Virus genome (UHGV): UHGV-0092003
DNA from: a virus
Reading direction: 5' to 3' (one strand)
DNA length: 64,000 bases
The notes below the pieces were generated by a model, which saw nothing but the letters and a program-made list of their open reading frames with translations, searched no databases and had not been told where the DNA came from. The translations under genes and the position numbers were made by a program. Below are positions 33,228 to 34,830 of the stretch, one piece after another (position 1 is the stretch's first letter; each line of letters starts with the position of its first letter).

Positions 33228-33480
33228 ACCGCTGGCGGCATAGTGTACCGCTGACAGCATATCAATTACCGCTGGTAACATACATTGAGCCGCTGACAGC
33301 ATATCTACAACCGCTGACAGCATACGAAATAAAAAAGCCCTCTATTCGAGGGCTTAAATTTGGTGTGAATAAACGATTCCAGACCTTCCTAATCACCGCT
33401 GACAGCATATCTAATAGTCAAATCACCGCTGGCAGCATACCATTTGCCGTTCACAGCATATATTGCACCGCTCAGAGCAT
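33228..33480. repeat. Iteron array (~9 copies of CCGCTGACAGCATA-like 14-mers) downstream of rep, comparable to P1 incA
   Basis: Direct repeats CCGCTG(A/G)CAGCATA(T/C) at ~21-bp spacing, with a hairpin in the middle of the array. Confidence 0.7.
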
Positions 33481-33481
33481 A

Positions 33482-34594
33482 TCAAAGCAACTTCAGACCG
33501 TTACTAAGTATCTCAATTAGCTTTATATTCTCAGGCGTCAAATCCGCAGAAAGTTCAGCTATCTTCTTGATCATGTTTTGTTTTACGACTTCCAGCTCGC
33601 CGTTCTCTTGTGGCCCTTCCACTTGCTCTGCAGGCTTCTCAGGCTTCGGCGGTTTCTCTTCACCAATGACTTTAAGTTTCGGGTTGCGTCCATGAATCTG
33701 AATAAATACAGAGCGACCACGCTTCACCTCTGAGTAATCGAGGTAGCCAAGCTCTTTAAGAGACTTCAGACCGTTTCGAATGGTCTGATTTTGGGAGCTG
33801 ATGCTTGCGCTATTCAGATTCAACCTCGCACGCAAACGAGCCAGAGATATTGGTGCCGGCCGCGCCGGAAGACTTTCAATGAAGGTGTATAGCGCCTGGG
33901 CGGTTTCTTTACGTGGAAGTTTGTTGATGACCTTCAGCTGGAGAAGAACTTTGTGGTCAAACCGGTATAGCTCTGACAGCTTTGGCTCGGCGTGAAATAT
34001 GATGGTGTCATTTTTCTCATTGTAATCCACGCTATTCACCAGATGAACCATGAGCAGAGATATCTTGTTCGAGCCGTCCACGTTCTTCTCTTCGTATGTG
34101 CGCTGGAACGAAAGCGTTGTGCGCATTATCTTCAGCAGGCTGTTTGTAATCCTGTCTCGCAGCGTCTTGCGTATCTGGGAAGATGGATACCCGCAGAACT
34201 TGGCAAACTTCGTGATGCTTAGCTCAACGCGCCCACTGGCCTCCCCATACTCGGCAAGTGATCGGACGACACCAACCCACGTCTTGAAGTCGTGATCCAT
34301 ATCGAGACGTGGCCCGGTTATTTTGATATCGGAATAACCCTCAGATCTCGCAACCTCCAGTTGCACCAGTTCTTTTGAGGCGTCTATCTGGTTGGAGTTA
34401 TTTCGTTTACTATTCTTCGTGCCTTTGAGCGTGGGAACGAACAATCCAAGTCTCATCAACGCAATGGGTTGTACGGTATTGTTGCTGTTCGGGGTGAGGT
34501 CGCCTGTGAATAACGCCGGAACACTTTCGTCGATCGCGTCATCATCATCGATTAACGGTATGTTTTCTTTCTTCTTTTTTTTGCCTGTGGACAT
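33482..34594 (-). CDS. Plasmid-type replication initiator (iteron-binding Rep protein)
   Basis: Minus-strand 370-aa ORF flanked on both sides by iteron arrays. K-rich N-terminus, winged-helix-like central region; organisation identical to P1 repA. Confidence 0.6.
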   Translation of the reverse strand: MSTGKKKKKENIPLIDDDDAIDESVPALFTGDLTPNSNNTVQPIALMRLGLFVPTLKGTKNSKRNNSNQIDASKELVQLEVARSEGYSDIKITGPRLDMDHDFKTWVGVVRSLAEYGEASGRVELSITKFAKFCGYPSSQIRKTLRDRITNSLLKIMRTTLSFQRTYEEKNVDGSNKISLLMVHLVNSVDYNEKNDTIIFHAEPKLSELYRFDHKVLLQLKVINKLPRKETAQALYTFIESLPARPAPISLARLRARLNLNSASISSQNQTIRNGLKSLKELGYLDYSEVKRGRSVFIQIHGRNPKLKVIGEEKPPKPEKPAEQVEGPQENGELEVVKQNMIKKIAELSADLTPENIKLIEILSNGLKLL

Positions 34595-34597
34595 GTG

Positions 34598-34740
34598 GAC
34601 ACCTCATTGCTTAAACCGCTGGTAGCATACTTCATTTGCCGTTAGCAGCATACACAAAACAGTCCACAGCATATCGCACGCCGCTCGCAGCATATATTTT
34701 TCCGCTGACAGCATACGCCAATGGTCTTTCAGAGCAGGCG
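34598..34740. repeat. Iteron array (5 copies) upstream of rep, the origin iterons (P1 incC-like)
   Basis: Same ...CAGCATA... iteron family as 33228-33480. Confidence 0.7.
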
Positions 34741-34744
34741 TGGC

Positions 34745-34830
34745 GCGGGTTGCGAGGATCGGGGATCTCTTTTGATCTCATATATGATCTATATAGGGAT
34801 CTTATTATTGGGATCTATCCAGTTGATATG
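34745..34830. promoter_or_regulatory. GATC-rich AT-rich origin element (7 GATC in ~80 bp)
   Basis: GGATCGGGGATCTCTTTTGATCTCATATATGATCTATATAGGGATCTTATTATTGGGATCTAT sits adjacent to the origin iterons, as in P1 oriR and oriC. Confidence 0.55.

Follow-up and report, generated by a model that had tools for sequence, protein, structure and literature searches.

This locus raises the question of how a phage genome could be kept in its host as a plasmid, and whether a short interval within a block of phage DNA-metabolism genes (positions 33,228–34,830) contains the replicon responsible. The interval lies in a 64,000-nucleotide stretch of the UHGV virus genome UHGV-0092003, all of which was analyzed and is referred to here as the window. 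A sequence-only reading of this stretch had proposed a complete P1-type plasmid replicon inside a phage replication module. Our analysis supports this proposal: the region is very probably the plasmid-prophage maintenance replicon of a Klebsiella phage-plasmid of the SSU5/pKpn group, homologous to oriR–repA–incA of P1 and working in a P1-like manner. This reading draws on protein homology, homology of the origin core, the common layout, conservation among relatives, and the plasmid state of the element, each of which is set out below.

The 370-aa Rep gene claimed for the minus strand was found at 33482–34594, with a GAGG Shine–Dalgarno motif 7 nt ahead of its ATG, and is predicted to encode an iteron-binding initiator of the P1 RepA/RepFIB family. 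Checked against replication-initiator families, the protein matched Pfam Rep3_N, a winged-helix domain (E 3.6e-9), and direct BLASTP aligned it with P1 RepA at 49% identity across 279 aa (E 6e-90). A tblastn search of phage genomes gave 51% identity to SSU5 RepA and 45.5% to the RepA proteins of P1 and P7 (E ~1e-68). These matches support the identification of Rep as an initiator and show, at the sequence level, that it is genuinely homologous to P1 RepA. The homology to P1 RepA is confined to the core of the protein (aa 32–309). On either side of this core are a Lys/Asp-rich N-terminal tail and a C-terminal extension of ~60 aa, consisting of a Pro-rich linker and helices; neither is found in P1 RepA, and the C-terminal extension is common to RepFIB relatives. 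In PHROGs, Rep matched phrog_775 (E 2.5e-130), whose label, "replication helicase", was discarded as a misnomer. NCBIfam has no model for Rep or, equally, for P1 RepA, and a sequence search of the PDB with Rep returned no match; matches came only from a fold search. The AlphaFold model used for that search has a mean pLDDT of 69, rising to 80–90 in the core, and its top PDB fold matches were RctB domains 2–3, RepE, pPS10 RepA, pi, and TrfA. As modeled, Rep carries the tandem winged-helix fold (Rep_3 superfamily) typical of iteron initiators.

Both sides of rep are occupied by iterons. A search of the whole 64 kb for the 14-mer CCGCTGACAGCATA, allowing up to three mismatches, gave 18 matches compared with 4.8 ± 2.0 in shuffled sequence (shuffle maximum 9), and 13 of the 18 lie on a single strand within 33229–34715; a chance origin of the repeats is ruled out by these shuffle statistics. 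In the orientation of rep, both arrays have the core TATGCTGTCAGCGG in common and follow the consensus TATGCTGtcAGCGG, with invariant positions at TATG, the first C of CGG, and the final G. The spacing is mostly 21 bp, or about two helical turns. The origin (incC-like) iterons occupy 34616–34715 on the minus strand as five direct copies, at 34616, 34639, 34660, 34681, and 34702 (spacing 23, 21, 21, 21). Four of these were matches in the search; the fifth, at 34660, is a degenerate copy, CAGTCCACAGCATA, with four mismatches. Because this copy keeps the 21-bp phase exactly and recurs in every relative, the nine downstream and five upstream iterons originally proposed prove to be the right count once it is included.

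The downstream (incA-like) array, likewise on the minus strand, falls into two blocks. The distal block (33229–33324) comprises five iterons, at 33229, 33248, 33269, 33290, and 33311 (spacing 19, 21, 21, 21), oriented as those of the origin; the proximal block (33396–33481) comprises four, at 33396, 33426, 33447, and 33468, the last of which directly adjoins the stop codon of rep, an arrangement also seen in P1. Within the 71 bp that separate the blocks is a terminator-like hairpin on the minus strand (33335–33355), formed by an 8-bp stem with five G-C pairs and followed by a T-run. This hairpin, which is also found in the K. oxytoca relative, likely terminates the rep transcript, and near it lies a DnaA-box-like sequence, TGTGAATAA, with one mismatch (33364–33372).

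Turning to the origin core, seven GATC sites had been described as directly following the upstream iterons. We count six, at 34757, 34764, 34774, 34786, 34798, and 34812, and they do not adjoin the iterons: a G+C-rich spacer of 41 bp (34716–34756; ~67% G+C, measured over 34716–34757) containing CCGCGCCACG intervenes. With six Dam sites in 59 bp (34757–34815), this is the densest GATC cluster of the window, a density reached in none of 200 Markov simulations, and the nearest further GATC is 225 bp away, within rep. The sites are embedded in AGATC(C/A) repeats in an A+T-rich stretch (34% G+C over 34758–34830) that is presumably the DNA-unwinding region. At the end of the 33228–34830 interval is a perfect DnaA box on the minus strand (34829–34837; TGTGGATAA, which reads TTATCCACA in rep orientation), beside which lies a degenerate second box, TATCAAC, at 34822–34828. 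No sigma-70-like rep promoter was found in or near the iterons at strict or relaxed thresholds, and no promoter candidate that passed a conservation filter was common to all four relatives; in P1, the rep promoter has only a weak match to the consensus (TTGCTA-17-TAGGAT). For antisense-RNA control, an Rfam search of the replicon gave no match.

The claimed correspondence with the layout of P1 holds. In the annotated P1 record, nine incA iterons are followed by repA, five incC iterons, five Dam sites, and DnaA boxes; read from the other end, the order here is DnaA box, GATC repeats, G+C-rich spacer, five iterons, rep, and nine iterons. An alignment of the origin core with P1 oriR, SSU5, and Cronobacter phage JK004 also runs base for base, with a mean column identity of 73%, and takes in the DnaA box as well as the AGATCC repeats and the spacer with CCGCGCCACG. 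This spacer motif is kept in the window clade and in P1, and is present in diverged versions in SSU5 and JK004. By this alignment, the GATC cluster and the GATC heptamer region of P1 oriR are homologous.

Closer relatives allow these elements to be followed individually. In an alignment of the origins of four replicons whose Rep proteins are 77–93% identical, the intergenic flanks have diverged. No shift in position is seen for the RBS region, the five iterons, the spacer, or any of the six GATC sites, and the DnaA box is in place in each replicon, altered by no more than one base. As far as such an alignment can tell, every one of the origin elements is evidently under purifying selection, and this conservation across relatives is the strongest computational indication that they are functional replicon elements. 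The repeats themselves are present and conserved in related genomes: the same 5 + 9 iteron count, derived from repeat search and DNA alignment, is found in a K. oxytoca plasmid, E. coli phage PhiR41_1, Klebsiella phage p4727, and pKPHS1, and the spacing of the downstream array varies among these relatives.

This last comparison bears on what the downstream array does. Instead of acting as an incA-like controller, it might be what is left, as neutral sequence, of a duplicated origin, or it might serve as an auxiliary site for loading Rep: its distal five direct, 21-bp-phased iterons mirror the origin array, SSU5 possesses a duplicated origin core with five iterons, and its orientation and spacing are unlike those of P1 incA. 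However, nine copies have been retained in four diverged relatives despite variable spacers between them, suggesting that selection acts on how many sites there are, and the array has no GATC cluster, no A+T-rich block, and no perfect DnaA box. We consequently give the remnant or loading-site reading little credence and continue to regard the array as a probable incA-like controller. The same three absences led us to reject the array as a second origin.

The element that carries this replicon is known in the plasmid state. Positions 1–25000 of the window are 100% identical, and positions 39001–64000 are 99% identical, to the K. pneumoniae plasmid NZ_CP103584.1 (circular, 111,561 bp). Across the replicon region, 24 plasmid records (~108–116 kb) show 95% identity or more, and nearly all of them are predicted to be non-mobilizable. 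One sister plasmid, NZ_CP057316.1, is 99.6% identical across the replicon region and, beyond the part covered by the window, has a complete complement of tailed-phage structural genes, among them those for the portal, terminase, major capsid, tape measure, and tail fibre; relatives with 77–79% identical Rep proteins have been deposited as phages. Most phage-plasmids of the SSU5 supergroup (pKpn group) are reported to belong to the IncFIB type (PMC7969092). Experiments on a close example, p2 of strain Kp1604, included mitomycin C treatment, which did not yield p2 in the form of phage particles (PMC8969562). The element belongs to this SSU5/pKpn phage-plasmid group and to the IncFIB type. The match to a circular Klebsiella plasmid, the virion genes of the sister, and the published group together bear out the earlier suggestion of a phage-plasmid. 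That suggestion had been built partly on a tyrosine recombinase (14315–15349) and an XRE repressor (15339); an integrase and an HTH protein do exist there, and taken alone they say little about plasmid maintenance.

The tyrosine recombinase could in principle integrate the element, and the replicon might then be an inactive relic in an element kept by integration or by another replicon. Nothing more direct points in that direction, and we hold it to be most improbable: databases list near-identical elements as closed circular plasmids (~108–113 kb), the inspected sister records carry this single typed replicon, Rep is intact, and the origin elements are all under the evident purifying selection described above.

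A separate consideration is whether an active maintenance replicon at this site also serves lytic growth. The rep gene sits in a phage DNA-metabolism block, between SbcCD-like and UvsX-like/gp32-like genes. Upstream of it are genes for a DnaB-like helicase, primase, ligase, split DnaE, gp32-like and UvsX-like proteins, and a 5'-3' exonuclease; downstream are genes for SbcCD-like proteins, a RuvC-like resolvase, NrdAB, ThyA, DHFR, RNase HI, and a methyltransferase of the phage Dam family (51129–51782), with convergent small phage ORFs following the iteron array. Given this setting, and given that no RepL-like or lambda-O-like second initiator was recognized among the window ORFs, the Rep/iteron origin might not be purely for maintenance and might also start lytic replication at induction, which would then continue through the element's DnaB-like helicase, primase, and DnaE and UvsX/gp32-type recombination-dependent replication. 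Against this, many window ORFs have no assigned function and a lytic initiator could be among them, the copy-limiting nine-iteron array would oppose run-away replication, and P1, the closest characterized relative, has a separate lytic replicon. We therefore consider a dual-use origin unlikely; an exclusively lysogenic role is unproven, because an initiator for a second, lytic origin was not recognized in the window.

The mechanism of P1 replication is well established through the work of Abeles, Austin, Chattoraj, and co-workers, and every step that we propose for the maintenance replicon is modeled on it and on the GenBank annotation of P1. Rep monomers would bind the five phased origin iterons beside the rep start and, together with DnaA at the flanking box, would melt the A+T-rich GATC region. 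Firing would require full methylation of the six GATC sites by Dam, and the hemimethylated sites present after initiation would be sequestered by SeqA. Of what Dam/SeqA regulation and a requirement for DnaA and DnaK/DnaJ/GrpE would presuppose, the sequence prerequisites, namely the six GATC sites and the DnaA box, are present, and by analogy with P1 this origin may be regulated in that way. Rep bound to the origin iterons would also repress rep; since a sigma-70-like rep promoter was not located, autorepression is suggested by position only. Finally, the nine downstream iterons would titrate Rep and pair with the origin iterons (handcuffing), holding the copy number at about one or two.

The element, the replicon family, and the phage-plasmid nature are already published and in databases. 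The sole increment of the present work is an origin map fuller than that available for the sister type IncpKPHS1, whose published description has only four downstream iterons and a Rep without a known domain (PMC6735626). Through this replicon, Klebsiella phage-plasmids of a widespread family (~110 kb) persist in their host cells, and some related IncFIB(pKPHS1) members carry blaCTX-M-14 (PMC6735626). A correct origin map aids replicon typing, start-codon annotation, curing strategies, and predictions of incompatibility.

Comparison with known replicons places the window replicon at graded distances from several systems. With RepE of mini-F, pi of R6K, and RctB of Vibrio chromosome 2 it has in common the tandem winged-helix fold and the general logic of iterons; these initiators have no pairwise sequence similarity to Rep and their origin layouts are different. 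The RepFIB proteins of F/P307-type plasmids are closer, being 48–52% identical to Rep and having the C-terminal extension in common with it, but they are housed in conjugative plasmids, not phage genomes. The RepA replicon of SSU5 and pHCM2 (Rep 51% identical) has a homologous origin core and the same neighborhood, with an exonuclease subunit on one side and small ORFs plus an SPFH gene on the other. It differs in the sequence of its iterons, CCACTGTAGAGAGTAG, and in SSU5 the origin core is duplicated with two sets of five iterons, and the downstream array is larger and contains both orientations.

The replicon of pKPHS1 (NC_016838, IncFIB(pKPHS1)) has a 79% identical Rep, an identical iteron core, and the 5 + 9 layout. 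IncpKPHS1 elements are likewise phage-like plasmids of ~110–120 kb, and their type is defined by more than 96% repA nucleotide identity to the repA of pKPHS1 (PMC6735626). The window replicon falls below this bound: the proteins are 79% identical, and megablast matches to pKPHS1-like records lie in a band of 60–80%. PLSDB, too, separates the types (rep_cluster_2469 versus IncFIB). By reason of the lower repA identity and the separate PLSDB cluster, we treat the window replicon as a sister type of IncpKPHS1. Since the iteron core and the 5 + 9 layout are the same despite 79% identity, the two Rep types could cross-bind each other's origins and be mutually incompatible; were this true, Klebsiella SSU5-like phage-plasmids of both Rep types would exclude each other. 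The downstream array may also control copy number in a manner unlike that of P1 incA; an all-direct, hairpin-split array may, for example, couple copy control to rep read-through transcription. We consider these proposals unlikely.

The last comparison is with the replicon of P1 (oriR/incC–repA–incA; IncY). In both systems the host element is a plasmid prophage, five origin iterons lie directly before rep (spacing 23, 21, 21, 21 here and 22, 21, 21, 21 in P1 incC), and nine further iterons lie directly after it, of which the last is in contact with the stop codon. The two iteron sequences, TATGCTGTCAGCGG here and GATGTGTGCTGGAGGGAAA in P1, are unrelated. There are six GATC sites here and five in P1, and one perfect plus one degenerate DnaA box where P1 has two in tandem at the same position. 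The nine downstream iterons are all direct and mostly 21 bp apart, and are split by the terminator-like hairpin and the DnaA-box-like 9-mer, whereas P1 incA has six inverted copies among its nine, at intervals of ~31 bp. Rep is 84 aa longer than its P1 counterpart, with extensions at both ends. In P1, parA–parB–parS adjoins incA, whereas no par operon is adjacent to the array described here; in the sister plasmid, a 222-aa ParA/MinD-type ATPase is encoded ~34 kb from the replicon, slightly beyond the window, and genes with ParB_N domains are found close to the terminase. The description of a "complete" P1-type replicon thus stands for the replication unit but not for partition, the ParA-like gene being distant. 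The backbone here is that of an SSU5-like siphovirus, and that of P1 is a myovirus. No new principle emerges from this comparison; the oriR design of P1, with its origin-core sequence and 5 + 9 iterons, is conserved across unrelated phage backbones.

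Beyond the downstream, incA-like iteron array of the replicon lies a perfect 15-bp inverted repeat (33133–33147 and 33169–33183), whose arms, TAGTGGTTACTAACC and GGTTAGTAACCACTA, are separated by 21 nt. The repeat sits between the end of a convergent ORF (33117) and the array, is retained in the relatives from a K. oxytoca plasmid and E. coli phage PhiR41_1, and is partly retained in Klebsiella phage p4727. No T-run follows it, and it could serve as a terminator or as a protein-binding site. Elsewhere in the window, a plus-strand gene (51129–51782) encodes a phage Dam-family N6-adenine methyltransferase (PF05869, E 4.7e-34). 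This predicted element-encoded enzyme could methylate the six GATC sites of the origin without host Dam.

Turning to the phage replication genes, a DnaE-type polymerase is encoded on the plus strand as two adjoining ORFs (19763–22135 and 22146–23366), one carrying the finger domain together with the PHP and pol III alpha domains, the other the C-terminal HHH_6 part. This split looks natural rather than the product of a sequencing error, because two polymerase ORFs are also annotated in another record. A T4-like recombination set comprises a gp32-like SSB (24502–25479), a UvsX-like recombinase (26776–27843), an SbcCD-like nuclease (36370–39368) and a RuvC-like resolvase (40073–40645), which together suggest recombination-dependent lytic replication. 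Two RNA genes, both on the plus strand, were also identified: a homolog of the sRNA STnc100 (28098–28294; Rfam, 74.8 bits) and a tRNA-Phe(GAA) gene (8775–8857).

Among the other genes, a CobT-like VWA protein (16225–18237, plus strand) is paired with an AAA_5 (CobS-like) ATPase (18335–19585, plus strand), the pair having the integrase/HTH genes on one side and the polymerase on the other. Annotations in the sister plasmid, a Klebsiella phage-plasmid, point to a candidate lipid II-degrading (colicin M-like) bacteriocin ORF at approximately 9898–10728 (plus strand), with an adjoining YebF-family gene, and place a YafO-family toxin gene near the integrase; the bacteriocin ORF and its neighbors were matched between window and sister by ORF length and order only.

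In public annotations, the pKPHS1-type repA encodes 403–407 residues (201–1418 in the pKPHS1 locus; proteins P0008, P0011 and P0016), a start approximately 40 codons too early that reads through the origin iterons, whose translation gives rise to the repeated 'MLSAV' peptides of the annotated proteins. The true start is likely the Met aligned with residue 1 of the window Rep. The PHROG family phrog_775, which contains the RepA proteins of P1, P7 and SSU5, carries the label 'replication helicase', and this has passed into RefSeq phage annotations; the label is a misnomer: these proteins bind the origin as initiators and are not helicases. In Salmonella phage SSU5 (coordinates of its own locus), the origin core is present as two tandem copies (2300–2544 and 2700–2920), each followed by five iterons, with most GATC sites lost from the rep-proximal copy, and the downstream array is larger (4049–4650), with iterons in both orientations.
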